Below, piece after piece: positions 29,363-50,768 of a DNA stretch of 64,000 nt. The notes beneath the pieces are model-generated. The model did no database searches. It saw only the letters and a list, made by a program, of their open reading frames with translations, and was not told the origin of the DNA. The position numbers and the translations under genes are program-made. Source of the DNA: Nitrosopumilus sp. (GTDB lineage Archaea > Thermoproteota > Nitrososphaeria > Nitrososphaerales > Nitrosopumilaceae). The stretch is from contig OZ243974.1 in NCBI GenBank assembly GCA_965214775.1, forward strand, positions 1,536,001 to 1,600,000. The letters are read 5' to 3'. The number at the start of each line of letters is the position of its first letter. The stretch's first letter is position 1.

Positions 29363-29436
29363 GCTTCGATAGCTCAGCCTGGTAGAGCGTTACCTTGGTA
29401 AGGTAAAGGTCACGGGTCCGGATCCCGTTCGAAGCT
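29363..29436 (+). tRNA. tRNA-Thr(GGU)
   Basis: GCTTCGA/TCGAAGC acceptor, D-arm GCTCAGCCTGGTAGAGC, anticodon TTACC-TT-GGT-AA-GGTAA. Confidence 0.92.
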
Positions 29437-30529: not shown

Positions 30530-31180
30530 TTAGTCCCACTTTGACCATGCGGCCATCCATCTGTAGGTCCATGTATTCAATTTACAACCTAGCGCTGCAA
30601 ACGTACATGCCAAAACTGCACCTGCGCCTGCACCTAGAGCAACCGGACTGTTGTAGAACTTGCCTACTTGCGGTTCTATCGGTGTCATGTATGGCGGCAA
30701 TGTCGGTCTTGGATACTTGAATGCCGTTTCAAGTGGGTCTGCTACTGTTATCAGGTTTACCATGTTGAACAACGGTAATGACATTCCTACCAGTACGCCG
30801 CCAAACAGTATCAAGGAGTGCTTGTTCTTCTTTGTTGCCCAGTAGACCAAGTCCAGCAGCATTGCTGATGGCAACCAAACCGGGGTTACAATGAAGTCAT
30901 ATGGATACCCAAGTGCAAACCATGCGCCTTTTGCTACCCATGTGTATACTGTCATAATCAGAGCGTAGTACGTTGCTGTGCCCGGAACGCCTGTAAATGT
31001 TAGGTAATATGTTGCACCTACAATAAGCATCAACGTTTGCGATATTGAGAATACCGTGTACGAAGTCCAAGCCCAGTCAGTGTAGAAGATGTAGTCTCCT
31101 GCATTAATTGTTAACAGTGTTGAGTTAACTGCAACGACTACTATGAACAAGTAGTGCGTACATCGTCTTAACCAGACCAT
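30530..31180 (-). CDS. amoA: Ammonia monooxygenase subunit A
   Basis: MVWLRRCTHYLF...AGDYIFYTDWAWTS...WTYRWMAAWSKWD, 216 aa, canonical archaeal AmoA; ATG at 31180. Confidence 0.98.
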   Translation of the reverse strand: MVWLRRCTHYLFIVVVAVNSTLLTINAGDYIFYTDWAWTSYTVFSISQTLMLIVGATYYLTFTGVPGTATYYALIMTVYTWVAKGAWFALGYPYDFIVTPVWLPSAMLLDLVYWATKKNKHSLILFGGVLVGMSLPLFNMVNLITVADPLETAFKYPRPTLPPYMTPIEPQVGKFYNSPVALGAGAGAVLACTFAALGCKLNTWTYRWMAAWSKWD

Positions 31181-31290
31181 TACAAACCTGAAGAAAGGGT
31201 CAGTATATAAAATTTTAGAGTGGGATAGTTTGCTGCATAACCGTGCCTGAAATTTGAAACTGGGCCAAAAAGCACCGGGGCCTGACTGTA

Positions 31291-31468
31291 CATACATAAA
31301 GTACTATATGCCGAGCGCAGGCTGGCACTTTGGGGGGGGATGGCAGCCGCCGCCAGAGGCCCGTATGGCTTCCAGGACAAGACGGCCACAGAAGCGATCA
31401 GGAAAAACGACCCAAAATGGATGAAAAGCAACATCAATGAATAGCGGACATTATTTCCATATAACACA
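31291..31468 (+). mobile_element. IS481 3'-end remnant in the amoA-amoX intergenic region
   Basis: Homologous to ~805-980, including gccacagaagcgatcaggaaa..gacccaaaatggatg and the identical right end. Confidence 0.85.
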
Positions 31469-33139: not shown

Positions 33140-34636
33140 TCAGGCGATCTCGAGCCGGTCGTCGATGCTGACCCTTCTGACATTGCCGTGCAGTTTGTGG
33201 AATTCGCCGGCCTTTTCGGTGTGTATCGGGATCAGCGTATTTGGCGAGGAGCCGTCGATGACGTCCTTGATCTGGTCGCGCGTGCCGTGTCCCGAAACGT
33301 GGGCAGTCGTCCACGACTTGTCACTGGATAGCAGACCAAAGTGGATCAGCCAGCGCTTGACGCGATCCTGGTCCAGCTTCATCTCGTCGTTGAATGGTTC
33401 TGTGGATGACCGGACATAGCCGGATCCCTCCTCTGGTCTCACGTCTATGAGGTTCTGCAGCTGAAAGTCCGAGCAGTAGAAGATGAATTTTTTCTGATCC
33501 TTTCTGACGTCCCTGTAATCCACATAGTTAGGATAGTCCAGAAACTCGCGCTCCCATCCCCTGTAGTCTGCCTGGATCTGGCTCTCCGGCCAGACATTCC
33601 TGTCCTTGTCCAGCAGTCCCCACGACTTTCTGGAGACGAACACCTTGATGTTGGGATCCGTCGGTGCGGGGTACTCGCCCTTCCACTCGTCTGATGTCTG
33701 GAACAGCTTTAGCAGGTAGGCCTGCTTTGTGTCTATCACCAGGTCGCGCCCCGTGGCCTTGGCGGCATTATAGAATGACACCATCCTGTCCAGATCCCTC
33801 GTGGGATATGTGCAGACGACCATCTTCTCGGTCCGGTTGATCACGTCAGTCACGTCCTCCTCTACCTTGAACTCGGTGACACTGTCGCTCTTGTCTATCC
33901 TCGTGCCCTCGCACAGCAGATAGTCCATGTCCTCGTCACCGCATCTGTCCACGAATTTCTGGCTGTATTTTTTACGTCTCCCGTGGAACCTGATGTCTGC
34001 AGTATACCCGATGCTGCCCTCGGACGTGTGTATTATGAACCCGTAGACGCCCGGCAGCGAGTGATCTATGGGGATGGATTCTACTGAGATCGAGTCAAGA
34101 TTCAGCTGCCTTGATGGGCCGATCGTCTTTATGTTCCTCGGAGTCTCCTCCCTGTGCTTGTCTGACTTTGCCCTGCTTATCCCTCCTCTGCTGTTCTCGT
34201 ACGTCCTAAAGTTCTCCTTGTACGTGATGTACTCCTCGCCCCCGCCCGTGTCCTGGAAGCACTGCATGATCAGTTTGCTTGCATCCGAGCAGTACACGGG
34301 GATCTCCGGCCTCAGGTAGTGTATGTAGGCGCAGTGATCCACGTGGGCATGGGACAGCAGAACCCCGTCTATCGACGTCTCCTGGCCGTGATCCCCGTAT
34401 TCCATGTGCCTAGAATAGTCCCTGCGGTAGATCCCCTTGATGTCAGGCAGAAGATTGAACTCGAACATGTCCCCCATGCCTGTAAGCTTTCTGGGGTTGG
34501 CAAACTCTGCAAAGTATTCGTTTACCTTGCCCATCTGCATCCCAAAGTCAAGGAACACCTTGGTCCCCTTGTCCTCGAGAAGTATCTTGGTTCCACCGAT
34601 CTCGTCGACTCCCCCGTAGAATGTAAGTGACGTCAC
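33140..34636 (-). CDS. Metallo-beta-lactamase/beta-CASP nuclease (RNase J-like)
   Basis: FYGGVDEIGG, LDFG, SHAHVDH, DHS, YTADIRFHG, HVSGH, IPIHTE. Confidence 0.85.
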   Translation of the reverse strand: MTSLTFYGGVDEIGGTKILLEDKGTKVFLDFGMQMGKVNEYFAEFANPRKLTGMGDMFEFNLLPDIKGIYRRDYSRHMEYGDHGQETSIDGVLLSHAHVDHCAYIHYLRPEIPVYCSDASKLIMQCFQDTGGGEEYITYKENFRTYENSRGGISRAKSDKHREETPRNIKTIGPSRQLNLDSISVESIPIDHSLPGVYGFIIHTSEGSIGYTADIRFHGRRKKYSQKFVDRCGDEDMDYLLCEGTRIDKSDSVTEFKVEEDVTDVINRTEKMVVCTYPTRDLDRMVSFYNAAKATGRDLVIDTKQAYLLKLFQTSDEWKGEYPAPTDPNIKVFVSRKSWGLLDKDRNVWPESQIQADYRGWEREFLDYPNYVDYRDVRKDQKKFIFYCSDFQLQNLIDVRPEEGSGYVRSSTEPFNDEMKLDQDRVKRWLIHFGLLSSDKSWTTAHVSGHGTRDQIKDVIDGSSPNTLIPIHTEKAGEFHKLHGNVRRVSIDDRLEIA

Positions 34637-35044: not shown

Positions 35045-36163
35045 TTACTGAAAGTCAATCTCCCTGTACTCGATGCCGTCTGCGGCAAGCAGCTCCCTCA
35101 GCTTTTCTGGAATCTTGGGGGCGACTACGATAAACCTGGAATCTGTCCTGCCGGACTTTCGCTCATAGTCGTTTTTGTATCCCAGTATCTGCCGCTTTAC
35201 GCCAGTCGGAGCCGACGGATACTTTAGCTCCAGCCCGACTGCAACCCCGTTTGCATCCCTGCACAGAAAGTCAATGGGTCCCGTCTCCAGCCTGTACTCT
35301 GACTTTTCCAGCAAAAGCCCGTCCTCTACCAGATGCAGGTTGTCCCTTATGTAGTCCTGGTACTGGCTCTCTTTTCTGACGGTGCTATCCAGCCTCTTTT
35401 GCAGCCAGTCGGGATTGTCGACATAGCTGTAAATCCACTCGTACTCGGGTGCCAGGTAAAACGCGGATATCTTCTTGGCCTCGACAATGCCGCCGTCTGC
35501 CAGTCTTTTGAGGAACTTGTCGCAGCTGGACTTGGGGATTCCCTCCGATACGATGAGATCCTCCTCGGCATCGGGCGCCAGTCCCCCGTTTAGCAGCTTA
35601 ATCAGCTTGCACTGCCAGTTCAACGTCCTGATCTGCTGCGAGTCAAACAGTGATTCGAGTACCTCCATCCTCTCTGCGACCTCGTCGGCGCCCAGCATCT
35701 TCTCGATTCGCTCCTTGAGATCCTCAAACTCCTCCCTGGATACGCTGTTCTGGGCCAGGTGGCTGCTTGCGTGCTCTGTAATCGTCTGCGTCGCGTTTTT
35801 TATCATCTCGTCCCTTGTCTTGTTCAGATCCTCGGTGGTGCCGAGCTTGAACTTGTCCATCTGATCTGTTATGTCCTCCTTTAGAATTGTAAAGTCAGAA
35901 CAGAGCCTCTGCATGTTTTCCTGCATGGATGTGACCTCGTTTGTATGCGGCAGGTTGGTCTTCAGGGATGTCAGATCCTCGTATGCCGTCTTCAGGTCGG
36001 TCTCGATTCTCGATACATCGTACTGAATCTTCGGATCCAGGCCGCTCAGCGGCTGCAGCCTCTTGTTGATTGCAGATATTCCCCTCCGGGACATGCCGTA
36101 AAAGACCGCGCTGATTATGACTGCGGCAGCTATTGCCAGAATGACGGCAGCGCCCGGTTCCAT
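35045..36163 (-). CDS. Membrane-anchored coiled-coil protein with C-terminal NucS-like PD-(D/E)XK endonuclease domain
   Basis: N-terminal TM helix, coiled coil, then ESQYQDYI..EY..GPIDFLCRD..GLELK..QILGY; start at 36163 inferred. Confidence 0.75.
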   Translation of the reverse strand: MEPGAAVILAIAAAVIISAVFYGMSRRGISAINKRLQPLSGLDPKIQYDVSRIETDLKTAYEDLTSLKTNLPHTNEVTSMQENMQRLCSDFTILKEDITDQMDKFKLGTTEDLNKTRDEMIKNATQTITEHASSHLAQNSVSREEFEDLKERIEKMLGADEVAERMEVLESLFDSQQIRTLNWQCKLIKLLNGGLAPDAEEDLIVSEGIPKSSCDKFLKRLADGGIVEAKKISAFYLAPEYEWIYSYVDNPDWLQKRLDSTVRKESQYQDYIRDNLHLVEDGLLLEKSEYRLETGPIDFLCRDANGVAVGLELKYPSAPTGVKRQILGYKNDYERKSGRTDSRFIVVAPKIPEKLRELLAADGIEYREIDFQ

Positions 36164-36479
36164 CTGCAGGGGTATCTGAATCAATACGGAGTCCACGGAT
36201 GCGCGGATTTTATGTGTTTGTGAGCGGGATCCGGACGGTATTGCATGAACGCCACGTTTGCTATAGCTAAGCGAAAAGTATCCCGGATCTGACGTCAGAG
36301 TGGGGTTGGACTCCCTGACATGATAAACCGTCATACCTTCATGGGAGATGATGATCCGAAATCAGAAACTGCAAATGCCCGGATTTTTCTGTACATTTGC
36401 CAAGTAACTTACAGATGACTCGTCATTTGCAAGTCATGAAGCCTTTCTGCCGGGACGCAGCAGACTGTCTGAATCAAAA

Positions 36480-37030
36480 ACCAAATCACTACAACAGTCT
36501 TCACAGAAATACCACATCAGATTGTCCCAGGCTAGAAACAACTCAGATACTCAGATGAGGTCGCCTGCAGATCCGCATGCTCTCTCCTGTACCGCCGCGA
36601 GTCGGTCACTTTTAGGAAGGCTGGATCCGCACGATACACCATGGTCATCACAAAGAGAAGGAAAAAACGGTCAGATAGGATCAGGGAGGAGGAGCTACCT
36701 GCACAAGAACGGCTCATCGGATTTGCAACCGGCGTGCCCGGAATAGATCCTGACGGGTACAGCCGCAGGTAGGGATCGAGACAGGATACCGGATGATAGA
36801 GAGCGCAAGGATTAGGATCCACAGCAAGAGCTAGGTCGCAAGGATGCCGTACTTTGTGTACTCTGGCAGTCTTCAATGCGTGGGTCATGGCAAACGCGAT
36901 GATGAGGTACATGACGGGGATCAGTACCGAGGATCCCCTGATCACCCAGCAGTGTCTCAAGGACGTGATCAAGCTCAACATAACAGACTGTAGGATGATG
37001 CCCCAGCCCCCTCCGCCAGCGCCTCCCTGA
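36480..37030 (+). pseudogene. Degraded ISH3/IS4-type transposase fragment
   Basis: Reads IGFATG..YSRR*[frameshift]IETGYRMIE..AVFNAWVMAN, matching the YxxRWGIETGYR motif. Confidence 0.65.
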
Positions 37031-37094
37031 GTTACTTCTGGGAAGACTGCCAACACACAAATATATTTAACATGCATCTATTCCTAAAAATCAG

Positions 37095-37955
37095 ATGAGT
37101 CATGATTTAAATATCAACATCAACATTGATGAAATCCTAGGCGATGTACCTGCACAATACCTGCCAATTGATAAGCTGATTACGGGAAAGAATCAGGCCA
37201 GACAATCCAAAGTGAAGGTGAGTGAAGATTCAAAACTAGTTGATCAGATTAGAAAGGTCGGCGGACTGCTGCAACCAATTATCGTAAAAAAACTCAAAGA
37301 TGAAACCTATGAGATAATTGTAGGCCAAAGGCGTACTGGAGCATATCGTATACTAAGTAAGGAAGATGACAAATTCAAAAAAATCAAGGCATATGTAATA
37401 ACAAAGGATCTATCACAAGATGAGATTAAGGTCATATCGTTCATAGAAAACTATGGGCGTGATGACATGGACAAAGCGGATTATGTAAACGTCATAGAAT
37501 ATTTTTATCAAAAATATGGAAAGATAGCAGGTGCTGCCAAGGCTTTAGGAATATCACCAAATGATGCCAAAAAATACCTCACTCATGCAAGACTGAGTGA
37601 CAAAGTAAAGGAATGTATTGCTAGAAAAGAGTTCACTATAGACACTGCAATGAAGGCTCTAAAGGCGCTAGGTGACGACGAGGACTCTGTGGATGAGGAC
37701 ATGTTAATTGAAACGGCAAGAGAGTTGAAAAAACTCAAACCAGCTAAACGGAATAAGGTAGTCAAAAAGATGCAGAGTGGTACACCATTGAAAACTGCAA
37801 TAAAGATCCAGCAATCCACCACAACATTAAACATAGATATAACAGATGATCAGTTGGACAGACTTGAGACATATAAGAGCAAGTATGGTTACGAAAACAA
37901 AGAAGATGCCGCCACTGAAGCACTTGATGTGGCTTTACTGCAAGATTTGACGTAA
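37095..37955 (+). CDS. ParB-like protein (CTPase fold + HTH + C-terminal RHH-like)
   Basis: NQAR, GLLQPIIV, YEIIVGQRR, ENYGR; HTH AAKALGIS. Confidence 0.85.
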   Translation: MSHDLNININIDEILGDVPAQYLPIDKLITGKNQARQSKVKVSEDSKLVDQIRKVGGLLQPIIVKKLKDETYEIIVGQRRTGAYRILSKEDDKFKKIKAYVITKDLSQDEIKVISFIENYGRDDMDKADYVNVIEYFYQKYGKIAGAAKALGISPNDAKKYLTHARLSDKVKECIARKEFTIDTAMKALKALGDDEDSVDEDMLIETARELKKLKPAKRNKVVKKMQSGTPLKTAIKIQQSTTTLNIDITDDQLDRLETYKSKYGYENKEDAATEALDVALLQDLT

Positions 37956-37971
37956 AGGGAACACGGCCACA

Positions 37972-38706
37972 ATGGGTATTTTTAATGATCCAAAAAGACT
38001 GGCTAAATTATTAATGTGCTTCAAGGTTCACGAAAGTGCCCGTCCACTGTCCCCTATAGCGGTAGCAGAATGGCTAAAAGAGGCGGAGGATGAATTGGGC
38101 AATGCACAGGATGTCATGAAACGGGTGGGTATAGAGAAATTCATGTGGGATGGGTTCAGAACACTACTATCGATACATGGGGAGTTTAAAGATCAGGTGA
38201 AATGGGGGGCAAGTAACCCAAGGACGATGCAGATTGGAATGAGTGCGGCCAGAGTCATAGGCACTTTTAAGCCTGAAGACCAGAACATATTGATTGGATC
38301 CATGTGGGACTATGGAACACCGTTTGGGTATGAGGAACTCAGAAGGATAAAAGCATGCTACACATCAGAATCACTGACACTGCCAGAGGCAATCAAAAAG
38401 ATTATGAAGTCAGATCGCATACAGCGAACGGTTATCTTTATGTTCATTTCTGGACTGGATGAGAGTATAAGAGACAACCTTTCCAGAGAATCGGATAAAA
38501 GGGGCATTCCACTAAACGACCTGACCAAACAAATTCTATCGGAACATCTTCCAGAGAACTCAATCACGAGTGTAAAAATACTTCAAAACGCAATCAGAAT
38601 TGTATTTACGGAAAATGGAAAAAAAGAGTTTGACAAACTAATAAAGTCAGAATCGATCAACAAGAACGACATGGTGAATCACATGTTGAAAGCCGGGGGG
38701 TTTTAA
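37972..38706 (+). CDS. ParB/KorB-type HTH protein lacking the CTPase domain, with RHH-like segment
   Basis: LSPIAVAEWL..VMKRVG..LLSI..IGMSAARVI..EDQ resembles the ParB central domain; LDESIRDNLSRES..GIPLNDLTKQIL resembles RHH. Confidence 0.55.
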   Translation: MGIFNDPKRLAKLLMCFKVHESARPLSPIAVAEWLKEAEDELGNAQDVMKRVGIEKFMWDGFRTLLSIHGEFKDQVKWGASNPRTMQIGMSAARVIGTFKPEDQNILIGSMWDYGTPFGYEELRRIKACYTSESLTLPEAIKKIMKSDRIQRTVIFMFISGLDESIRDNLSRESDKRGIPLNDLTKQILSEHLPENSITSVKILQNAIRIVFTENGKKEFDKLIKSESINKNDMVNHMLKAGGF

Positions 38707-38709
38707 ACA

Positions 38710-39768
38710 ATGTCTGATATAAACGCGTCAGTAACGCAGGACGGTGCTATATTATTGGGAAAACTGTTCTCATGTGATGGTCATGTGTATGGCAGAGGAC
38801 ATTTTGTATTTTCCCACATGCATTCGGATCATACAGACAAGCTGTCAAAATGCCTCCACAACGGAAAAATATACCTGTCAAAACCAACCCGTGATCTGTT
38901 AGAGGCAATCAATGATGAAAACTATGGAAGTGATCCACAAATGATAAAGAGAAGCCAGATAGAAATTTTGGATTTTGGACGTAAAAAAATCGTAAACCAT
39001 GACGACGTGACGGAAATATTGACACTGCATGAGTCAAACCATGTTCTTGGTGCAAGCCAGGTGGAGGTAATCACAAAGGAGGGACAAAAAATAGTGTATT
39101 CGGGAGATATCACCAATTCGGACCAACCGCTAAAGGATATAAACACGCTAGTTCTTGACGCCACACATGGTCATCCCCAATATTCCAAATACTCTGACAA
39201 AGAAAGTGTCGAAAGGCGATTCATAGATAAAATTGACGAGGTCATTCATAATGACAGGGCTCAGCCGGTGGTCATTCACGCACATCAGGGCAAGCTGCAG
39301 GAAATCATGTCCTTGATTTCAAATCATAGCGAGTTTAATGATTTTCCACTACACACATCCTCAAAAAGCATACGCATATCCAAGGTATACCAAAAATATG
39401 ACTTTAATATAAGAGATGATCTTGTAGATGAAAAGTCGGACGAGGCAGAGACGGCAAGAGAGAGCGGATGGCCATACATACAATGTACGTCACATTTTAG
39501 CAAAAAAACCTATGAGATCAATGGAAAGGCATATTCGATTTTTGTATATGATTCACTTCCAGACGGTTCCCAGATAAATGAAAACGAAAACAGTACGTCA
39601 TTTTCTACCACATCCCATGCGGATTTTGATAATATAATCAAATATGTTCAAAATGCCTGCCCTAAATTCATAATTGTAGACTCGACAAGAACTAACCAAT
39701 ACAAGTCGCTAGTCAAGGAACTTCGTGATAGGGGATTCAACGTACAATATCAGCCAAAAAGGAAATGA
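38710..39768 (+). CDS. Metallo-beta-lactamase-fold nuclease (beta-CASP/SNM1-like)
   Basis: SHMHSDH, NHVLGA, YSGD, LDAT, SHADF. Confidence 0.82.
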   Translation: MSDINASVTQDGAILLGKLFSCDGHVYGRGHFVFSHMHSDHTDKLSKCLHNGKIYLSKPTRDLLEAINDENYGSDPQMIKRSQIEILDFGRKKIVNHDDVTEILTLHESNHVLGASQVEVITKEGQKIVYSGDITNSDQPLKDINTLVLDATHGHPQYSKYSDKESVERRFIDKIDEVIHNDRAQPVVIHAHQGKLQEIMSLISNHSEFNDFPLHTSSKSIRISKVYQKYDFNIRDDLVDEKSDEAETARESGWPYIQCTSHFSKKTYEINGKAYSIFVYDSLPDGSQINENENSTSFSTTSHADFDNIIKYVQNACPKFIIVDSTRTNQYKSLVKELRDRGFNVQYQPKRK

Positions 39769-39769
39769 T

Positions 39770-41035
39770 ATGAAACTCAATAATACACAAGTTGGGATAT
39801 TCTGGGATATTGTTTCATACGTCAAAAACAATAACATCAATTCTTCAAATATAGACACGATCAGTGATTCACCATCATTGAAGGCATGGGCAAACGTTCT
39901 AAAGGCACTGTGCAATTCTCAAAAAATCAGCATCACAAATCAGGATGCAAAATCCCATGTACTGGACATAATAGTACAATTCCTTAATACCGCTACTAGA
40001 AACAATCGCTCAAAATTGGCGAAAATATTAGATGATTTTATGTATTACTTGGAAAATGAAAAAAAATGGCTGTATTATTTTGTTCCAATATACAATCTTG
40101 ACTTTGATGGAAACGAGCTGGAAATTGATAAATTTATGAAGATTAGAAAGATATCAGATGAGCAGAAATCTTATCTGAGGGCAGAATATGAGGGATTTGC
40201 ACCAATCAGGGTGAATGTGGGCAAGATCCGACACATCTTTGTAGTTCGCGTAGAGAGGAACGATACAGATCCAGCAAGAACCATACGTAATAGGGTTGAT
40301 GTGGTTCTGAACAAGTTTAGATTGCTCAAATCAGGAGATATAGTTGCAGGCGGACTGTACTGTTTTGAGAAAAGCGAGAACTGGAACCCTTATGGTAAGA
40401 TAGACAAGATAAACCCAGAACCTACGGGCATAGTGTCATCTAACATGTATGTATTGACAGAATCCCACAGGGAGAAGTTTCTCAGTCTACTGTGTGTGAT
40501 AAACAACAGGTATCCGGTAGCAAAAGGTGGTGATTATTCAAAGAAATATGGTGATTATTTTGAAAAAACAATACAAAGATTCAACGAGTCGCTTTTAGAA
40601 CGAAATGTCAATTTTAGGATGGTGTACTTGGTACTTACACTTGAGGTGCTTCTCGTATCAAGTCCCGGAGACAATACAAGTAAGATATCGCAGAGAACTG
40701 CGCTGTTCATAGGTAGAAACGATGATGAAAAAAAGAAAATATGGGAACACATGAGACAGTTCTATAATTTTCGCAGCGGCCAGATACATGAGTATGTTGA
40801 ACGAACCATAAAGGTGGATTCCAAGACAATTCCGATCAAAAAGGCAACTGCCATGTTAGAGACATGGACAAGGAGGTCAATCCTGCAGATGATATTTTTC
40901 AGTCAGGAAAAAGATACGCTCCAGTTTGACAAGGTGGAACTGTGTAAGAGTATAGAGACATCAATGTTTGATAGGACACTCAACTCTAGGTTTTCCACAC
41001 TGCATAAAAAAATACTAAATCAGATCAATTTTTGA
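39770..41035 (+). CDS. ApeA-like HEPN-domain protein (putative RNase effector)
   Basis: LTLEVLL..ISQRTALFIG..FYNFRSGQIH (Rx4H). Confidence 0.72.
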   Translation: MKLNNTQVGIFWDIVSYVKNNNINSSNIDTISDSPSLKAWANVLKALCNSQKISITNQDAKSHVLDIIVQFLNTATRNNRSKLAKILDDFMYYLENEKKWLYYFVPIYNLDFDGNELEIDKFMKIRKISDEQKSYLRAEYEGFAPIRVNVGKIRHIFVVRVERNDTDPARTIRNRVDVVLNKFRLLKSGDIVAGGLYCFEKSENWNPYGKIDKINPEPTGIVSSNMYVLTESHREKFLSLLCVINNRYPVAKGGDYSKKYGDYFEKTIQRFNESLLERNVNFRMVYLVLTLEVLLVSSPGDNTSKISQRTALFIGRNDDEKKKIWEHMRQFYNFRSGQIHEYVERTIKVDSKTIPIKKATAMLETWTRRSILQMIFFSQEKDTLQFDKVELCKSIETSMFDRTLNSRFSTLHKKILNQINF

Positions 41036-41959
41036 GGTCGCATGGTTTGCCACAATCAATGTTTTGTGACTGACGGATGTAAGCCGGGCATTCGTGATTT
41101 TTATCATGGTGCCTGGTTGTAGTTTCTTCTCCATCGAATGTTCTAGTATGAGGGGTGTTGATTTCAAAGTTTTGTCTACAAGAACAAACTTGTTTACCGA
41201 CTGTTTTGATTTGTTCTTTTCTAGCATCCCGTAGATGTTGAATTTTTTACTCTTTGCACAAAAGAACTTTGCCTGTACTATTTTGTCAAAAAAGTCCTTG
41301 TGTTCATGCTTTATTTTAACAGCACTTCCGTTGACCCAACGATGCAAAAGATTACAGGTTCTTGGATCTGCATTCTTGTTTCCGACCTTGCAGGTGTCCT
41401 CATAAGCACAATTCATACAGGGATTGTCCATCAATGACTCAAACTGGGAATTTATGTGGGGCTTCTCAATGTATTCAGTCAGCATCCAGGCATTTTCACT
41501 ATCAGAATATTTTATCAAACCATCATGTTCAAGTTTTAAAAGATCTAATCCCTTGAATTTGTCAGTCAATATTTTTCCTGAAACCGGCTGATTCTCACAC
41601 AAGAACTTTAGTGCGTATTGTTCCATGTGCATGGTGAAATGACTTCTAATATTGGCATTGCCGGTGATCAGTTTGAGACATACCCTACATCGCATCTCGT
41701 TTTTGTCCCTCTGTGCCTTTACCACCCCTGACATATTATCAAACTCCTCAAACTCATCATTTGACTCGTCATCTGACATGGTATTGATGACATCAAACTC
41801 ATCATTTGACTCGTCATCTGACATGGTATTGATGACATCAAACTCATCATTTGACTCGTCATCTGACATGGTATTGATGACATCAAACTCATCATTTGAC
41901 TCGTCATCTGACATGGTATTGATGACATCAAACTCATCATTTGACTCGTCATCTGACAT
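41015..41959 (-). CDS. Chimeric protein: acidic repeats + C2H2 finger + wH/4-Cys (TFE-beta/RPC34-like) + OB-fold
   Basis: CRVC-x12-HFTMH; PCMNCAYEDTC..PRTCNLLHRWV; C-terminal LVDKT..LQPGTMIKITNAR. Confidence 0.6.
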   Translation of the reverse strand: MSDDESNDEFDVINTMSDDESNDEFDVINTMSDDESNDEFDVINTMSDDESNDEFDVINTMSDDESNDEFEEFDNMSGVVKAQRDKNEMRCRVCLKLITGNANIRSHFTMHMEQYALKFLCENQPVSGKILTDKFKGLDLLKLEHDGLIKYSDSENAWMLTEYIEKPHINSQFESLMDNPCMNCAYEDTCKVGNKNADPRTCNLLHRWVNGSAVKIKHEHKDFFDKIVQAKFFCAKSKKFNIYGMLEKNKSKQSVNKFVLVDKTLKSTPLILEHSMEKKLQPGTMIKITNARLTSVSHKTLIVANHATSKIDLI

Positions 41960-41971
41960 GGTATTGATGAC
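41748..41971. repeat. 45-bp perfect tandem repeat x5 (encodes MSDDESNDEFDVINT)
   Basis: tcaaactcatcatttgactcgtcatctgacatggtattgatgaca at 41748, 41793, 41838, 41883, 41928. Confidence 0.95.
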
Positions 41972-42003
41972 GGGGTTGTCGCCTAATAGTCTTTATGCGT
42001 AAT

Positions 42004-42081
42004 AGACCTTATGCGTATTTGCCAAAAATGACGTAAAAGCTGCCTAACTTTTTTGATCTGAACCGATTACGCAAAAGGTCT
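42004..42081. mobile_element. MITE family C (IS5-end derived), copy 1
   Basis: AGACCTTATGCGTA..CGATTACGCAAAAGGTCT with 3-bp TSD AAT; abuts a truncated IS5 end at 41988-42003. Confidence 0.8.
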
Positions 42082-43285
42082 AATATTTTTCAAGCTGATT
42101 GTTCTTCGACATGCTGATCTTTGCGATATTCTTTATCACTGATATGATTTCATCTGTCGCAAACTTAATTTCCTCTTCTGTGTTAAATCTGCCACATCCG
42201 ATCCTAATTGATTCATGTGCTTGCTCTGATGTCAATCCAAGTGCTAGGAGGACGTGCGAGGGCTCTACTGCTTGGGTCGTGCATGCAGAGCCTGCAGAGA
42301 TGGCCAGCCTCTTGGATACGGAGTTGATGATGGCCTTGCCCTCGATTCCGTCAAATCTGACATTGAGGTTGTGTGCAAGCCTATTCGTGGGATGCCCGTT
42401 TTGAATCCCGCCAATCTCCGCAAACCTGTCCAGCATCTGCCTTGTCCAGCTCCTGAACCTGTTGTTTTCCTGCTCCATCTCGCTGTTGGCAATCTCCAAG
42501 GCCTTTGCAAAGCCCACGATTCCGGGAACGTTTAGGGTGCCAGAGCGGATGCCTCTCTCCTGCCCACCTCCATGCATTATCGAATCCAGTCTTACGCGCG
42601 GCATGACTCCTCTTGCATAAAGCGCGCCAATTCCCTTGGGTCCGTAAATCTTGTGGGAGGAAAACGACATCAGATCAACATTGAGCCTTTGCACATCGAT
42701 ATCCATGTGGCCGACGGCCTGGGCCGCATCTGTATGAAACAGCACGTTATTGTCGTGCGCTATCTTGCCGATCTCTGCAATGTCTGCAATCGTTCCAATC
42801 TCATTATTTGCAAACATCACCGAAATCAGGACTGTCTTGTCCGTTATCGCGTCATTTACTGCCTTGGGATCAATCATGCCAAATTCGTCAACGGGCAGGT
42901 ATGTCACATCCATGCCCTGGTCCTCAAGACGTCTTGCCGTATCTAGGACTGCCTTGTGTTCTGTAACGCACGTGATTAGGTGGTTCCCACGATCCGCATT
43001 CTTTGTCATGACGCCGCACAGTGCAAGGTTGTCTGATTCCGTGGCACCTGACGTGAATATGATCTCATCCATGTGTGCGTTAATTGCACGGCCGATCTTC
43101 TCACGGGATGCCTGGACAACCTGTGATGCGTCATGGCCATACGAGTGATCCAGGCTTGACGCATTCCCAAACACCTGCGTAAAATACGGGATCATCTCGT
43201 CTAGGACGCGCGGGTCCACCGGCGTAGTTGCATGCGAGTCCAGATAGACGGGTTGACCGGATTTGGCCTCGGAGAAAGACTGCAT
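42080..43285 (-). CDS. dndA: Cysteine desulfurase DndA (IscS-like)
   Basis: YLDSHATTP, HTDAAQ, SSHKIYGPKG, SAGSACT; last gene of the dnd operon. Confidence 0.9.
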   Translation of the reverse strand: MQSFSEAKSGQPVYLDSHATTPVDPRVLDEMIPYFTQVFGNASSLDHSYGHDASQVVQASREKIGRAINAHMDEIIFTSGATESDNLALCGVMTKNADRGNHLITCVTEHKAVLDTARRLEDQGMDVTYLPVDEFGMIDPKAVNDAITDKTVLISVMFANNEIGTIADIAEIGKIAHDNNVLFHTDAAQAVGHMDIDVQRLNVDLMSFSSHKIYGPKGIGALYARGVMPRVRLDSIMHGGGQERGIRSGTLNVPGIVGFAKALEIANSEMEQENNRFRSWTRQMLDRFAEIGGIQNGHPTNRLAHNLNVRFDGIEGKAIINSVSKRLAISAGSACTTQAVEPSHVLLALGLTSEQAHESIRIGCGRFNTEEEIKFATDEIISVIKNIAKISMSKNNQLEKY

Positions 43286-43286
43286 T

Positions 43287-43706
43287 TTATCCGTCCGCAA
43301 GTCGGAACTTGCCGGGATTCATCTCCCTGACGAATCCGTATACGTCAGAGAGGCCGTCGATCCTCTGTTTTAGCGATATGGCCCCCCGGTTGAGATGGGC
43401 CCTGGTCATCTCTCCGAGATACGTCTCCGGATCCAGTCCGTCCTGGTTTAGGCGGTTGATCATGAGTGCAAGGTACATGTTTTCATCTCCGGCAAACAGT
43501 CTTGCCGGTTCAAACTCGCTGCCCTTCTTGTTGTATTCGTCAGGATTGGGAATTCCCCTCTGCTTTATGGACAGGCACAGGGACAGGCGGGCCCAGGCCT
43601 CCGGTTCCACGGCAGTGCTGTACCTGAGCATGCCAAACAGATGAGTCGTGCGCGAGCTTGCCCTGATGTTCTCAAACTGCAACCTAGCTGCCTCCCCTGC
43701 TCCCAA
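43287..43706 (-). CDS. dndE: DNA phosphorothioation protein DndE
   Basis: WARLSLCLSI..RAHLNRG; size and position between dndD and dndA; real start may be the TTG at 43682. Confidence 0.85.
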   Translation of the reverse strand: MGAGEAARLQFENIRASSRTTHLFGMLRYSTAVEPEAWARLSLCLSIKQRGIPNPDEYNKKGSEFEPARLFAGDENMYLALMINRLNQDGLDPETYLGEMTRAHLNRGAISLKQRIDGLSDVYGFVREMNPGKFRLADG

Positions 43707-45696
43707 AGTATCCGTCGTTTACAACGCTCGTGTCGCTACTGGGATCATACTGGATAAGCATGGCCTGTGAGACATGCGGCCTTATCATCTCATAGTACGA
43801 GTCCACGACCTCGGTGTTTGTGGAAAATATGATTATCTGGTGTGATGCCTCTGGGTAAAAGTTGCGGATCAGGTTCTCCCTGTGCTCCACATCCAGCCTG
43901 GCAAGCGGTGTATCCACTATCAGTGGCAGCGGGCGTCCTGACGTCTTGGCCAGCCCCCATACGATTGCAGTCACGTACAGCTGGAGCTCGCCCTGCGACA
44001 GGGTGTCCCTAGAGATCTCGTCCTCCCTGCTGTATAGCGTGATCCTGTATGTCTGGGGATCAATTGAGACTGACGTGATGAGCCTTGACTTATGGAAGCA
44101 CCTTTTGATCCCCTCCAGTATGTTGGATTCCAGCAGCGTGATCTTTTTTGCCCGCAGCCTGGCAGAGTACTCCTCTAGAGCATCCTGTATCCTCGGGGCC
44201 AGCTCCAGTCCCAACTGGTTTCGGTGGCTGGATCTTTTCGCTGCAAGGTGCTTTCGTATCTTGCTGTTTAGCAGGACTATTTTGGATTTTTCCTGCGCCT
44301 CTAGCACCTCCAGCGTATGGCATTCCTGCTCCATCTCCCCTATCTCAAGGGTGATCTCCTTGATACTCGAATACAGGGGACCCACCTCGTCTTGCTGTGG
44401 GGCGATGTCCAACTGCGCAGATATCCCGTCTAGCCGGTCTGCATATTGTTTTTGACTCTTGTGATATACAGACAAGTGCTCGTGTTCCTGATCCAGTATC
44501 CTGTCAATCCTTTGCCTCATTGCCGCCATCTCGGACAGCGAAAAGTCAAAGGTGAGGCGTCTCTTGTCAGACAGCGAGCTTGTCCTTGCATCTGCAATGT
44601 CCCTGAGCCTTTTTACCAGCGCCTTTTTGGTCTCCGGGTCGTCCAGCTCTAGGTGCGCCTCAAACTCTCCTATCATATGGTCATAGGCTGCCCTCACCGT
44701 ATCGCCTGAAAGGTTGGATTTTATGCTGTCCTCGTCCTCTTGGAGTTTTTCTCTGACCTGCCTTATCTGATCTGGCACTATTGCAAGCGGCAGGTCTTTT
44801 TTGATCATGTCTCTTATTTGGGATTCCACAAAATTGAGGGACTTTGAAATCTCATCTCTCTCATTTACCAGCCTTTTCCGGTCTTTTGCATGGCTGCCAC
44901 CCGCCTTGAAGAACTGCTCCTCTTTTCCATCCAGTTCCTTTTTCTTGCGGGAGATGTCGTCGGTCAAAAATGTGTGCTTTTGCTGCATATCCTCCAGCCT
45001 TCTTTCGGCCTCGTCCTTCTCCCTGTTCATCTCCTCGATCCTTGCAAGTACTTCCTTGTCCTCCTCGCCCGAGTTTCGCAGTATGTGCGTGCCGATGTCA
45101 TCCCGGAGCCGGTCGGATATGTCAAGTCCCAGCAGGCTGTCAAAGGACGACTTGATGTAAAGGTGCTCATCGCCTTCCTCTACAATGTCCTTGATTCTTT
45201 CCCCGTCAAAGAAGAACATGCCTGCCACCGCCCTAGGGATCATCTGGTTTATCATCATCTGGATCTGGGAGTCACCCACGGCCTCCACCCTGACGTATCC
45301 CTTGCCTGCATCAGACTGCTTGTACATGGCCAGAAACTCGTCAATACGGCCGTCATTGTTCTGCCAGTTTCGGGTTATCTTGTACTGGAGGATCCTTCCA
45401 TTCTGCGCATATTCAAACTCCAGCGATACGGAGGCCTCCCCGGCCTGGGTCTTTTTGTGCTTGTGCCTGTGAAAGAGCCGTCTGATCTTCTGGTTATACT
45501 GTTTTTTTGTCATCTTTTCATCCATACTGCTCTGTCCGTACAGGCACAGGGGGATCGCCTCAAAGAGGGTAGACTTGCCGGCGCCGTTGGTCCCGCCATA
45601 CAGAACAATGGGCCTCTCAGACGTGGTAGGAAACTCGAACTCGTTGTGCCCCCCGTAGGCGCCAACGTCATCAAGTATCAGCCTAGTTAAACGCAT
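43684..45696 (-). CDS. dndD: DNA phosphorothioation SMC-like ATPase DndD
   Basis: GTNGAGKST, FFFDGERI, coiled coil, LSQGE, IVDTPLARLD..HR, ASHQIIIFST. Confidence 0.93.
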   Translation of the reverse strand: MRLTRLILDDVGAYGGHNEFEFPTTSERPIVLYGGTNGAGKSTLFEAIPLCLYGQSSMDEKMTKKQYNQKIRRLFHRHKHKKTQAGEASVSLEFEYAQNGRILQYKITRNWQNNDGRIDEFLAMYKQSDAGKGYVRVEAVGDSQIQMMINQMIPRAVAGMFFFDGERIKDIVEEGDEHLYIKSSFDSLLGLDISDRLRDDIGTHILRNSGEEDKEVLARIEEMNREKDEAERRLEDMQQKHTFLTDDISRKKKELDGKEEQFFKAGGSHAKDRKRLVNERDEISKSLNFVESQIRDMIKKDLPLAIVPDQIRQVREKLQEDEDSIKSNLSGDTVRAAYDHMIGEFEAHLELDDPETKKALVKRLRDIADARTSSLSDKRRLTFDFSLSEMAAMRQRIDRILDQEHEHLSVYHKSQKQYADRLDGISAQLDIAPQQDEVGPLYSSIKEITLEIGEMEQECHTLEVLEAQEKSKIVLLNSKIRKHLAAKRSSHRNQLGLELAPRIQDALEEYSARLRAKKITLLESNILEGIKRCFHKSRLITSVSIDPQTYRITLYSREDEISRDTLSQGELQLYVTAIVWGLAKTSGRPLPLIVDTPLARLDVEHRENLIRNFYPEASHQIIIFSTNTEVVDSYYEMIRPHVSQAMLIQYDPSSDTSVVNDGYFGSRGGS

Positions 45697-47107
45697 TTGG
45701 CCTCACCCTTTCCTCCGCATCCCTGTGCTCGAACAGCTCTGCCCTTATCTCGTCGATGTCTTCTCTCCACTCCTTTGCAAGCTCCTTTTTGATCCTCTCA
45801 AATATCTTGGAGTGCGTCGAGCCCGTCTGCAGCTCCACCTCGGCATTTAGCAGGCTGCTTACGATCTTGTACGGAACCTTGTGCTTGGTGCAGACCTGCT
45901 CAAGCAGTGCCTGCTCGTCGTGACCAAATCCCCCCGTGTCGTCAGTGACGGATTCCAGCTGGATTCCCGTTATATCATGGTAAATCCCGTATGCCGTGTT
46001 CTGCCAGTCGCCGTTTTCCATTCTCCAGATGCGCTGTATCTCGTGTATCTCCTCTTCGGAAATCAGGACCATGTCAGGATCATGCTTCTGTATCTTGACC
46101 TGGCCGTTTAGCAGCTTTTGTAGATACTCCTTTCTAAAGTCAAGCGTGTATGGGCCCGGCGTATAGTCGGATCCGTCGTTTTTCAGATCCACCCGACCGT
46201 TTCTGCGCGTTATCTGGCGTACCTTGGGCCATGTCTCGGGATTCTGTGTAAGCTTTAGCTCGTGGCGCAGCTCGGCTAGTGGCTCCATCCATTCCTGACC
46301 GTTCTCAATCATGCTGTCAAGCGACTTTTGCTTGTCCACCACGGTGCAAGTCCAGCAGCCAAACCTGCCGCTGCCGCACGACGGCGTGCTGGTATCTACC
46401 ACGAGGGGGCACTCTGAGGCGTTGGCGTCCTGGTACAGGGCCAGAAGATCCCTGTTGTTGTCCCCCCATGGATTCCTGTTTTGCAGCAGATAGTTCCAGA
46501 CGTCGTCGGTCTCAAAGTCCACCAGGGGGGTATACACGTACGTCTGGGCAAATTTCTTGTGGTGACTCAAAACGCTGTTTTCAATCTCCAGCAGGTTCAT
46601 GCTCTGCTGCCGGGTAGAGCTCTCGCTTTTGCGGGTTCCCAGCAGCACTATGACCTCGCCGTACTCGGATACCTTGTTTTTGATAAAGCGGTCGGCGTTT
46701 GCAATCTTGAGCATGTCGGTACACCACCTAAACATTGAGGTGGGCGCTGGGTATCCGAGGCCGAGAATCCTGACCCAGAACGTGTCGGTAATGGGGGGTC
46801 TCAGGAGGTTGGTCGATATCGGAATGGATGACTTTTTTGCGGCCTTTTCCATCTTGTCCAGCGACGTGGTTATGCGCTCTACGATCTGTGGCGACTCTAC
46901 CAAGGTATCAGAGGATACGACATAGATCTTTTTATCCAGTTTTTCTGCAGGTAGTGCGGATAGAGCCCCCCAGACAAGCTGCACCATGCAGGTCGAGTCC
47001 TTTCCCCCGCTGAATCCCAAAACCCACGGGCGGGAATCGTTGAGGTATACAGTGCGAATCTCCTCGTATATCTTCTCAAGTGGTTTTGAGTCAAACACGG
47101 AAGTCAT
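45683..47107 (-). CDS. dndC: DNA phosphorothioation sulfurtransferase DndC
   Basis: WVLGFSGGKDS, DTLVE, GYPAP..FRWCT, ECPLVVD..SCGSGRFGCWTCT. Confidence 0.95.
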   Translation of the reverse strand: MTSVFDSKPLEKIYEEIRTVYLNDSRPWVLGFSGGKDSTCMVQLVWGALSALPAEKLDKKIYVVSSDTLVESPQIVERITTSLDKMEKAAKKSSIPISTNLLRPPITDTFWVRILGLGYPAPTSMFRWCTDMLKIANADRFIKNKVSEYGEVIVLLGTRKSESSTRQQSMNLLEIENSVLSHHKKFAQTYVYTPLVDFETDDVWNYLLQNRNPWGDNNRDLLALYQDANASECPLVVDTSTPSCGSGRFGCWTCTVVDKQKSLDSMIENGQEWMEPLAELRHELKLTQNPETWPKVRQITRRNGRVDLKNDGSDYTPGPYTLDFRKEYLQKLLNGQVKIQKHDPDMVLISEEEIHEIQRIWRMENGDWQNTAYGIYHDITGIQLESVTDDTGGFGHDEQALLEQVCTKHKVPYKIVSSLLNAEVELQTGSTHSKIFERIKKELAKEWREDIDEIRAELFEHRDAEERVRPNAFN

Positions 47108-48186
47108 TTCTCATACTGCCCCAGTGCCTTTGGTATCTTAGCTCCGCATTCCCTAAGTATGGCGCATGCTCCCAGCGCGATCCCGATGGTCGTACGAACC
47201 ATCTTTTTTCCTTGTATGAGGTTGCCGTCCCACATGGGGTTTGTGCGTGACCAGTCGATTTTTGACAGGGGTCGGAGCCTTCTTTTCCAGCTGTCCGGAT
47301 ACTGCTTGATTATCTCCTTTCCTGCCATTCCAAGCGAGTTCATGCAGTTCGTATGTGCGTTGACATAGTTGGCCCTCAGCTCATCCGGGGATATGTCGCC
47401 CTTGATCAGCATTTGCCACTCTGGAAGATTCTCAGATACAGTCTTCCAAAATTCCAGGATTGTCTCCTTTTGCTCCTTGCTGGGACGTCGTACTGATTCC
47501 TTGCCAAGGAGCTTCCTGGTGGCATCGGATATCCCTCCAAGTGTAAAGACCTCCTTGGCATGTCTTCCTATGGTTGTTTTTTCAAGCTCAACCCTGTCTC
47601 GGAATATCTCTAGGCTCTCTGTCATTTCCACAACGAACTGGGAATATTTATCACGGTTATCGTACAAAATGTTAAGTGATTTTGATGGCTTTACTGCGTT
47701 TTTGTTCAGGTCTGCAAACATCTGCTGGGAGCGTTTTAGCCCCGAGTCCTCAAAGAACACCACCGATATCGACTCGCCTCCAAGCTCGGGCCTTTCCTTG
47801 AGTGCCTCTTCTATTGCCTTGCGCCTGTGCTGGCCGTCGTTTATGAGCAGTCGCGACTCCATGTCAATGAGCAATTTGCCCATCTTGCCGTCAGGACCCA
47901 GATGCTGTGCAGGAATGAACTTCATGTTTCCGTCAACTGATGCCGTTAGCGACGAAAAGATGTACTCGTCTGGATTGCTCAGAATATAGTCCTTGAGGGC
48001 TGGAATCCTAGATTCTCGCAGCGTCCTTTGGGCCCGTATCTTTGCAGGAATCTCATGTTCATTGAATATGAATAGTTTCGGGATTGTCTTCATCGGGCAC
48101 ACTGCTACATAGTATACGCGGTTGGCCTGGACTCCGCGAATGGCATCAAAACTGTAATTTACCGAGCCTGCCTCAGATTCGCTCAT
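47104..48186 (-). CDS. dndB: DNA sulfur modification protein DndB
   Basis: AIRGVQA, RAQRTL, YIFSSLTAS, NDGQHR, QQMFADLN. Confidence 0.93.
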   Translation of the reverse strand: MSESEAGSVNYSFDAIRGVQANRVYYVAVCPMKTIPKLFIFNEHEIPAKIRAQRTLRESRIPALKDYILSNPDEYIFSSLTASVDGNMKFIPAQHLGPDGKMGKLLIDMESRLLINDGQHRRKAIEEALKERPELGGESISVVFFEDSGLKRSQQMFADLNKNAVKPSKSLNILYDNRDKYSQFVVEMTESLEIFRDRVELEKTTIGRHAKEVFTLGGISDATRKLLGKESVRRPSKEQKETILEFWKTVSENLPEWQMLIKGDISPDELRANYVNAHTNCMNSLGMAGKEIIKQYPDSWKRRLRPLSKIDWSRTNPMWDGNLIQGKKMVRTTIGIALGACAILRECGAKIPKALGQYEK

Positions 48187-50604: not shown

Positions 50605-50768
50605 TTCATTAAAAGGATGTATTTGCATTTTTATAATCTTTTCATGCTGATCGGTCTTTTGGACTGCACCAAGGGGGGGGATCCCTACCCACCTATCTTT
50701 TCAGAGTGGCATCTTAGGCAGACATCTCCTGTTTCATCTTCGATTTCGGATGGGCAAATTAGGGGCAA

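Follow-up and report, generated by a model that had tools for sequence, protein, structure and literature searches.

What does a module of the basal transcription machinery do in an accessory locus, next to genes for DNA phosphorothioation? The question is raised by a gene, here called P0001, in a 64,000-nucleotide stretch of the genome of the ammonia-oxidizing archaeon Nitrosopumilus sp. (GenBank assembly GCA_965214775.1, contig OZ243974.1, positions 1,536,001 to 1,600,000). The whole stretch is referred to below as the window. The original prediction, made from the letters of the window without database searches, had described the P0001 protein as a chimera that embeds a winged helix and a four-cysteine (4-Cys) module like those of TFE-beta/RPC34 between a C2H2 finger and an OB fold, and had suggested a transcription-factor mimic, a decoy or a nucleic-acid sensor. 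Based on the analyses reported here, we propose, with a probability of roughly 0.4, that P0001 is an exapted TFE-beta paralog that links a metallo-beta-lactamase (MBL)/HEPN gene cassette associated with the Dnd system to transcription complexes or to melted DNA. Domain make-up, homology to TFE-beta, the presence of a separate TFE-beta and the synteny with the HEPN gene and the cassette are described first, followed by the functions that these features may point to.

Kinship with TFE-beta and domain architecture of P0001

The open reading frame (ORF) and the quoted amino acid string were confirmed, with PCMNCAYEDTCKVGNKNADPRTCNLLHRWV corresponding to P0001 residues 180 to 209. Profile comparisons identify the 4-Cys module in this region as homologous to that of TFE-beta/RPC34 (RPC6, hRPC39; PF05158), in which a wing is likewise followed by P-C-x2-C-x5-C...P-x2-C-x5-W. 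In an alignment of six sequences of the P0001 family (A2), the first proline, the four cysteines, the tyrosine, the second proline, the leucine, the tryptophan and the valine of the motif were invariant. Comparison of the P0001 family with the C-terminal ~117 to 132 residues of 12 TFE-beta-like orthologs from the order (A3) by hhalign gave a probability of 98.2% and an expectation value (E) of 4.3e-14 over 76 columns, which start with the final helix of the winged helix and continue to the end of the Cys module. The A3 profile in turn matched residues 280 to 314 of human RPC6 (7a6h_P) at E 1.4e-5, and PF05158 was matched by 8 of the 12 orthologs (best E, 6.1e-7). Residues other than the ligands are also common to both families, namely S-I-x-x-A-P-C leading into the first cysteine and C-x-L-[IL]-E-x-W-V at the end. 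The Cys-motif link to RPC34/TFE-beta that had been proposed from the motif alone was thus borne out by profile methods. Furthermore, a relaxed form of the pattern, C..C.{4,6}C.{3,14}P..C.{5}W, occurred exactly twice in the six-frame translation of the 2.83-Mb genome (5.67 million residues), in the P0001 ORF and in the TFE-beta-like gene of the genome, while five residue shuffles returned 0, 1, 0, 0 and 0 matches. In TFE-beta and hRPC39, the four cysteines in question hold a cubane 4Fe-4S cluster (PMC4495717). The module of P0001 is therefore a predicted [4Fe-4S] site as well as a predicted contact surface for TFE-alpha, and it is probably occupied by an Fe-S cluster.

The genome has a separate canonical TFE-beta, and P0001 is not the housekeeping copy. 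The check for such a copy, recommended along with the original prediction, led to a 513-amino-acid ORF at ~448 kb (L004:1480-3021, minus strand; G000:C1:~448.3-449.9 kb), which is the only other match to P0001 in the genome (E 0.004). Its last 146 residues match positions 291 to 331 of the 332 positions of PF05158 at E 2.8e-5 and 24.2 bits, against a curated Pfam cutoff of 28.4 bits, and BLASTP aligned it with P0001 at E 8e-6 (21 of 71 residues identical). In a profile search, a TFE-beta-type module was present in 360 of the 400 other genomes of the taxonomic family. Full-length P0001, in contrast, occurs in 1 of 401 family genomes, which is not the distribution of TFE-beta as a single conserved housekeeping gene. 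With a TFE-beta-type module in P0001 and a separate canonical copy elsewhere, both objections that the original prediction had raised against itself fall away: a Cys motif that profile searches do not link to RPC34/TFE-beta, and a gene that is simply the only TFE-beta of the genome. The canonical protein carries an N-terminal, Lys/Pro/Thr/Glu-rich repeat extension of ~390 residues (PF04886 PT repeat); orthologous TFE-beta-like ORFs in relatives measure 120 to 330 amino acids. P0001 has a finger, an OB fold and an acidic tail instead of this Lys-rich extension, and the basic tail of the one protein contrasts with the acidic repeat tail of the other.

Docking of the Cys module on TFE-alpha is supported by a complex model. 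The TFE-alpha of the genome, encoded at G000:C1:875842-876357, has 171 amino acids, with a winged helix and a zinc ribbon (PF02002; E 2.6e-16). It was aligned with 10 orthologs and modeled together with P0001 residues 101 to 220 (core 26 to 145) without a 4Fe-4S ligand. The complex scored 0.65 (runs, 0.66, 0.65 and 0.65), compared to 0.00 for the best of three controls; a mark of 0.65 is reached by 116 of 157 solved complexes and by 2 of 215 mismatched pairs. The runs agreed in at least 73% of the contacts, and the predicted local distance difference test score (pLDDT) of the partner was at least 75. On the P0001 side, the confident interface comprises residues 169 to 210, corresponding to the linker and the Cys module. 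On the TFE-alpha side it comprises residues 4 to 17, 87 to 108 and 151 to 166 and thus avoids the zinc ribbon. The predicted interface agrees with the mapping in Sulfolobus, where the Fe-S domain of TFE-beta is vital for dimerization with TFE-alpha and its winged helix is not, and where TFE-alpha needs its winged helix and C-terminal tail while the zinc ribbon is dispensable (PMC4495717). P0001 is therefore predicted to dock on TFE-alpha through its Cys module, as shown experimentally for Sulfolobus TFE-beta in the same source. The idea of a mimic or decoy has thereby gained some support from modeling, although likeness to TFE-beta alone could pass at a score of 0.65.

To the plan of TFE-beta/RPC34, P0001 adds a C2H2 finger, an OB fold and an acidic repeat tail, in a defense-type locus. 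An AlphaFold2 model of residues 76 to 314, built on 12 sequences, had a mean pLDDT of 72.7 and contained, in this order, a beta-hairpin plus helix with two cysteines and two histidines, three helices with a beta-hairpin, the Cys region and a beta-barrel. The first of these units is a classical C2H2 finger. Its ligand spacing fits C-x2-4-C-x12-H-x3-5-H, the model forms the beta-beta-alpha unit, and the family profile matches the solved fingers of PRDM9, ZNF568 and Zif268; the significance of these matches is a sum over many fingers, with single-finger E values of only 0.3 to 2. The finger of the original prediction is accordingly retained. The following domain is winged-helix-like, as judged from the helices and hairpin of the model and from the hhalign alignment, which places the last helix and the wing of P0001 on the winged helix of the TFE-beta orthologs. 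Fold searches with the whole model, in which this domain was not searched alone, returned no match for the winged-helix region because the OB domain filled the results.

Structure searches also recovered the OB fold that had been claimed for the C terminus. VIA-align matched the barrel to the Oxytricha telomere end-binding protein alpha (Z 11.2; root mean square deviation [rmsd], 3.5; 91 residues aligned) and to a single-stranded DNA (ssDNA)-binding domain of RPA70 (Z 11.1; rmsd, 2.7; 90 aligned), with further matches to Teb1 (Z 10.8), archaeal RPA, MCM N-terminal and HIN domains. Likewise, Foldseek returned HIN, SSB and RPA domains at E values from 1.2e-4 upward, whereas a viral structure library gave only generic OB/SSB matches. 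No named Pfam, NCBIfam or PHROG family covers the domain. The C-terminal 95 residues of P0001 thus share the fold of RPA, SSB and telomere end-binding proteins (Z 9 to 11) and may bind ssDNA. Unlike those proteins, P0001 has one OB domain without a sequence-family match, carries its acidic tail at the N terminus and has the OB domain fused to transcription-factor modules. The protein as a whole matched no family in the Pfam, PADLOC or NCBIfam scans, and the PHROGs scan yielded only a 10-residue match inside the repeat.

The acidic tail had not been mentioned in the original prediction. This tail derives from a 45-bp tandem repeat (5.0 copies, 100% matches, positions 41748 to 41971; Tandem Repeats Finder [TRF]), which extends past the start of the ORF to position 41971. 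As each 45-bp unit opens with ATG, six in-frame starts are possible, and the true start of P0001 is ambiguous. The homologs have a single short acidic stretch ahead of the finger, and the amplification of the tail is therefore recent and private to this genome.

P0001 is a genuine, conserved gene of a very rare family. Among 1.84 billion cluster representatives, an exhaustive HMMER search returned 17 proteins at E ≤ 0.001, of which 10 reached E ≤ 1e-10 and 5 reached E ≤ 1e-30; these counts include the protein used as the query. Homologs of full or nearly full length have 256 to 364 amino acids and 33 to 41% identity to P0001, with E values ranging from 4.8e-46, the best, to 1e-16. Only two further clusters (P0056 and P0057) were gained when 5.8 billion proteins were searched with the profile, and a word-indexed homolog search with the single P0001 protein recovered only the query itself. 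The family consists of about a dozen clusters with 1 to 35 members each, and all relatives come from metagenomes or ENA assemblies. Most of the homolog contigs measure 1 to 5.7 kb, the two longer ones being 18.6 kb (P0004) and 980 kb (P0006). Relatives were not found among viral contigs with P0001, P0005, P0007, P0010 or the HEPN alignment as queries, in the species-genome collection with P0006 or the HEPN alignment, or among metagenome contigs with P0010, and the ESM Atlas held no usable match to P0001.

Within the order, 71 of 201 genomes (own genome included) matched the single P0001 protein at E ≤ 0.01, and all of these matches except that of the own genome were confined to residues 56 to 199, that is, to the wing and the Cys module. 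The profile matched 361 of the 401 genomes of the taxonomic family, a tally that includes 8 unpublished genomes. Among the 150 matches listed, every foreign one fell within profile positions 73 to 208, and only the own genome spanned positions 3 to 249. Across the phylum, E ≤ 1e-18 was reached in 1 of 401 genomes, the own one.

The HEPN gene, the cassette and the dnd operon

The conserved partner of the P0001 gene is the convergent HEPN gene, the 3' end of which overlaps that of P0001 (Table 1). Two foreign loci of the P0001 family, L039 (2,484 bp) and L040 (1,247 bp), both with a guanine-plus-cytosine (GC) content of 0.25 to 0.26, showed the same convergent pairing, with a 17-nucleotide overlap and a close HEPN homolog (44% identity), such that the 3' overlap was present in all three loci. 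Upstream of the HEPN gene, L039 carries the end of a homolog of the cassette MBL gene (E 1.7e-11). What lies upstream of the P0001-like gene differs between the two: an unrelated 64-residue end in L039 and, in L040, the end of a homolog of the MBL/beta-CASP gene located at 33140 to 34636 in the window. Thus, dndA does not directly precede the P0001-like gene in either locus; both contigs are too short for dnd genes to be visible. Such a conserved overlap speaks for a functional link between the P0001 gene and the HEPN gene.

Homologs and a database record place the start of the HEPN gene at ATG 39770, one base past the stop codon of the MBL gene; the mechanical ORF, with its start at GTG 39725, extends into the MBL gene. 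The HEPN protein had 13 matches, consisting of its own record and 12 homologs with 37 to 46% identity, and FRSGQxHE, containing the R-x4-H motif (R335 and H340), was invariant across the 13 sequences. In an AlphaFold2 model (pLDDT 80.8), residues 253 to 385 had HEPN proteins as their matches in almost all of the 14 best VIA-align rows (first, 4nqf, Z 7.7), others being the toxin of a HEPN-MNT pair (7ae2, Z 7.3), Csm6, the HEPN domain of sacsin and AbiV. As Foldseek returned no match at E ≤ 0.001 for the 421-amino-acid protein and Z values below 8 are middling for helical folds, the HEPN assignment rests on the list of folds together with the motif.

Table 1. Features of the P0001 locus in the window, in order of position
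Feature	Coordinates	Strand	Basis or remark
ParB N-terminal-domain protein, 286 aa (cassette gene 1)	37095..37955	+	PF02195, E 2.2e-11
244-aa protein without known family (cassette gene 2)	37972..38706	+	No Pfam, PADLOC, NCBIfam or PHROG match
MBL-fold protein, 352 aa (cassette gene 3)	38710..39768	+	TIGR04122, E 1.2e-11; Cas14 MBL, E 9e-8; both far below cutoff
Convergent 421-aa protein with C-terminal HEPN domain	39770..41035	+	3' end overlaps P0001 gene by 21 nt
P0001 gene, 314 aa	41015..41959	-	ORF; acidic tail, C2H2 finger, winged helix, 4-Cys module, OB fold
C-terminal OB fold, residues 220-314	41018..41302	-	VIA-align, Foldseek
Linker and TFE-beta/RPC34-type 4-Cys module	41324..41446	-	C181, C184, C190, C202; W208
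Winged-helix-like domain, ~residues 114-163	41471..41620	-	AlphaFold2: three helices and beta-hairpin
Classical C2H2 zinc finger	41621..41698	-	C91-x2-C94-x12-H107-x3-H111
Acidic N-terminal tail, residues 1-75	41735..41959	-	MSDDESNDEFDVINT x4 and one variant unit
Dispersed ~80-bp repeat	42000..42085		Fills dndA-P0001 spacer; blastn-short, TRF
dndB-C-D-E-A phosphorothioation operon (dndA, 42080-43300)	42080..48186	-	Pfam, PADLOC, NCBIfam

Together with three genes upstream of it, the HEPN gene forms a cassette (ParB-X-MBL-HEPN). With the HEPN profile, more distant relatives (~25% identity) were detected in 12 of the 400 other genomes of the taxonomic family. The seven with the best E values were examined (L073 to L079), leaving G503, G529, G534, G208 and G282. 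In all seven, the genes for the ParB N-terminal-domain protein, the 244-amino-acid protein, the MBL protein and the HEPN protein were collinear, and the cassette lay directly beside dnd genes with dndA as its neighbor; the cassette is therefore a Dnd neighbor in this lineage, and when the window is counted, at least 8 genomes of the taxonomic family have it next to dnd genes. In L073 (stop codons 27 bp apart) and L075 (99 bp), cassette and dnd genes converge in the way seen in the window, and they are co-directional, with dnd(D)EA followed by the cassette, in L074, L076, L077, L078 and L079. The R-x4-H motif is kept in both HEPN clades. No P0001-like gene was detected in any of the seven loci (tblastn, E ≤ 1e-3), and the Cys motif was likewise absent from them. 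The P0001 gene is thus an add-on, the fifth gene, of one cassette sub-clade, and it occupies, in the window, the very junction at which dndA otherwise meets the HEPN gene.

The genes dndABCDE have previously been published for ammonia-oxidizing archaea (PMC6790972, PMC7848895), and the available portions of these reports name no partner genes. Like the Dnd restriction partners DndFGH, PbeABCD and DndI, the cassette is a multigene module next to dndBCDEA and a possible user of phosphorothioates as a self mark. It is neither DndFGH nor PbeABCD. The latter, consisting of an HKD-SF2 helicase, a small protein, a CxC ABC ATPase and a DndE cognate (PMC10853773), was considered as an identity for the cassette and rejected, as the two have no component in common. 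HEPN and PIN RNases have been reported in Dnd neighborhoods in the same source; its main text makes no mention of MBL or lactamase, and its supplements may list the cassette. The cassette is a candidate for the partner module of phosphorothioation in these archaea, and it may serve in defense.

P0001 and dndA share a strand, with 120 bp from the end of dndA to the start of P0001, and this part of the original prediction stands. The functional weight that had been given to dndA does not, considering the repeat in the spacer, a break in GC content and the different arrangement of the other loci. The ~80-bp spacer repeat has 27 other copies of at least 50 bp with 82 to 93% identity in the genome (blastn-short), and ~20 shorter hits of 20 to 33 bp occur elsewhere in the genome. 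The spacer repeat includes a direct duplication of 16 bp a short distance ahead of the first ATG (TRF, 41984 to 42017), looks MITE- or REP-like (a miniature inverted-repeat transposable element or a repetitive extragenic palindromic sequence) and might carry a promoter for the P0001 gene. The GC content is 0.49 to 0.56 in the dnd genes (0.51 in dndA), 0.39 in the P0001 gene and 0.375 to 0.42 in the cassette, compared to 0.471 for the genome. The gene accordingly lies in a low-GC accessory stretch, in line with the accessory island of the original prediction. Thus, dndA is not the real partner of P0001, and the tie to Dnd is indirect, through the ParB-X-MBL-HEPN cassette.

Across positions 36300 to 43400, no Rfam family was found, and a promoter and terminator scan remained at chance level, its models being of bacterial type and not applicable to archaea. 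In four sequencing runs, short contigs were identical to the window, and excess depth together with loose ends was seen at 42000 to 42085.

Other features of the window

Upstream of the cassette, a 498-amino-acid MBL/beta-CASP (RMMBL) protein is encoded at 33140 to 34636 (minus strand). This gene is accessory and multicopy, occurring in 11 of 40 other family genomes, and the own genome has another copy with 91% identity at C1:~1777-1778.6 kb as well as a split copy with 50% identity at ~274 to 275.5 kb. In L077 a homolog adjoins the cassette, and in L040 one adjoins the P0001-like gene. A protein with a NucS C-terminal nuclease domain and a long N-terminal region, including a hydrophobic stretch and coiled-coil-like sequence, is encoded between the MBL/beta-CASP gene and the cassette (35045 to 36334, minus strand). 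An indel variant is present shortly before the first cassette gene: in contigs of two runs (X7 and X8), 452 bp (36579 to 37030) are swapped for 25 to 26 other letters.

Farther away, a set of the defense-island type at 7991 to 16699 (plus strand) comprises a DUF499 protein, a small ORF, a DUF1156 protein and a SNF2-type helicase with NOV_C. An AIPR/AbiU-like protein with an Mrr-type nuclease at its N terminus is encoded just beyond dndB (48760 to 50628, minus strand; GC content, 0.39). Six transposase genes (rve, DDE_Tnp_4) were found at 9 to 956, 4058 to 5329, 6195 to 7178, 51470 to 52648, 54796 to 56031 and 60914 to 61750, and a serpin gene lies at 1284 to 2690. Core genes are present in the same window, including amoA (30530 to 31297) and the genes for TBP (25973 to 26536) and ribosomal protein S3Ae (18713 to 19324). 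A Dam-like methylase gene (29559 to 30425) adjoins tRNA-Thr (29363 to 29436).

Possible roles of P0001

According to the role proposed here, P0001 would have kept the TFE-beta wing and the [4Fe-4S]-type 4-Cys module and gained the C2H2 finger, the RPA-like OB fold and the acidic tail. The 4-Cys module would dock on TFE-alpha in place of TFE-beta, and this docking would bring finger and OB fold to melted promoter DNA. P0001 could then act as an adaptor or sensor that ties the predicted nuclease and RNase of the cassette to transcription complexes; alternatively, it could throttle TFE-dependent initiation when the cassette fires. We infer both a competition of P0001 with TFE-beta and the output of P0001. 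Accessory paralogs are known for TBP, TFB and TFS. A precedent for a mimic or competitor is TFS4 of Sulfolobus, which is described in PMC5715097 as a TFS paralog turned RNA polymerase inhibitor. As in the case of P0001, a paralog of a basal factor exists beside the canonical copy and has been re-used. TFS4, however, belongs to a different factor family without sequence relation to P0001 and has no added nucleic-acid-binding domains, and inhibition is known for TFS4 and only hypothesized for P0001. In a further-reaching version, a defense module would take over the initiation factor of the cell. P0001 would replace TFE-beta on TFE-alpha at the RNA polymerase clamp and read the melted strand by means of the OB fold and the finger, and the Dnd-linked MBL nuclease and HEPN RNase could thereby act on transcription complexes on phosphorothioate-free DNA or shut them down. 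We consider this version quite unlikely; if true, it would amount to self/non-self surveillance that is coupled to transcription and derived from a basal transcription factor.

Several observations weigh against a role of P0001 on TFE-alpha for the cassette. The absence of the gene from the seven related loci means that it is dispensable for the core function of the cassette, and its pairing with the HEPN gene is seen in only two other loci, both on short contigs, 85% identical to each other and belonging to one sub-branch. The Cys region of the P0001 model has a low pLDDT of 51 to 64, which is expected for a model without metal. The P0001 fragment matches PF05158 positions 295 to 331 only at E 0.12 and 12.3 bits, with a cutoff of 28.4 bits. 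Furthermore, P0001 has H-R where both families have E-[ND] in L-[IL]-E-x-W-V, and this deviation sits at the predicted TFE-alpha interface. The docking score itself may reflect mere likeness to TFE-beta, as close cousins of a true partner also pass, and with the custom alignments used for the complex its calibration is only rough.

The main rival is a TFE-independent, locus-specific regulator or sensor, in which the finger and the winged helix would bind an operator, the OB fold would sense ssDNA from infection or damage, and the HEPN/MBL cassette would be switched accordingly, the 4-Cys module being a structural or redox remnant of TFE-beta. Such a protein could be likened to the regulators with a winged helix and an ssDNA sensor at other defense loci. 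DNA-binding proteins beside defense operons are most often regulators, and P0001 has two or three nucleic-acid-binding domains, a conserved place by the cassette and a convergent, overlapping 3' end that allows antisense interplay. However, a purely structural role of the module predicts neither the family-wide conservation of its non-ligand residues nor its predicted fit to TFE-alpha. Likewise, no locus-specific operator-like repeat was found, the 16-bp duplication being part of the dispersed repeat, and all seven related cassettes exist without such a regulator. This explanation appears somewhat unlikely to us. The remaining explanations are less likely. The strict pairing with a close HEPN subfamily in all three loci could indicate that P0001 binds the HEPN protein directly and, as in toxin-antitoxin pairs, serves as its antidote or activator, given that HEPN RNases are commonly checked by a neighboring product (HEPN-MNT; solved pairs are among the fold matches). 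A partner of this kind is very unlikely, as the genes are convergent and not co-transcribed, fold searches with P0001 gave OB folds and no MNT-like nucleotidyltransferase, and the more distant HEPN proteins keep R-x4-H without a P0001-like partner.

P0001 could also be an SSB-like replication or repair passenger of a mobile element, with no role in defense or transcription. An acidic tail is typical of SSBs, and an OB fold combined with such a tail is the layout of single-strand-binding proteins; low GC content, sporadic occurrence and the abundance of insertion sequence elements in the window would fit as well. Considering that four family queries found no relative on viral contigs, that the cassette contains no integrase or replication genes and that the conserved HEPN overlap argues for a functional tie, we regard a passenger as highly improbable. 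Finally, the position of P0001 on the same strand 120 bp downstream of dndA could reflect a client or companion of DndA that is co-transcribed with the dnd operon and acts in phosphorothioation, all the more as DndA can build the Fe-S cluster of DndC, according to the title of You et al. (2007). This explanation is barely credible. The GC content drops from 0.51 to 0.39 at the junction and the spacer holds a dispersed repeat, the upstream gene is not dndA in the two other loci, and the seven loci with dnd genes and cassette lack a P0001 gene altogether, with only 27 and 99 bp between dndA and the HEPN gene in the two convergent ones.

The role that we favor, that of an exapted TFE-beta paralog serving the Dnd-associated cassette, concerns a kind of protein for which we found no counterpart: our searches of open-access text yielded no TFE-beta-like protein with added domains or in a defense locus, and the available portions of two reports on TFE-alpha/beta (PMC4495717, PMC5861453) describe no accessory TFE-beta paralog. 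What is new here is a TFE-beta/RPC34-type protein with a new architecture and in a new context. If P0001 binds TFE-alpha, it would be a natural competitor or an alternative beta subunit and would offer a handle on TFE in ammonia-oxidizing archaea, which are hard to study genetically.

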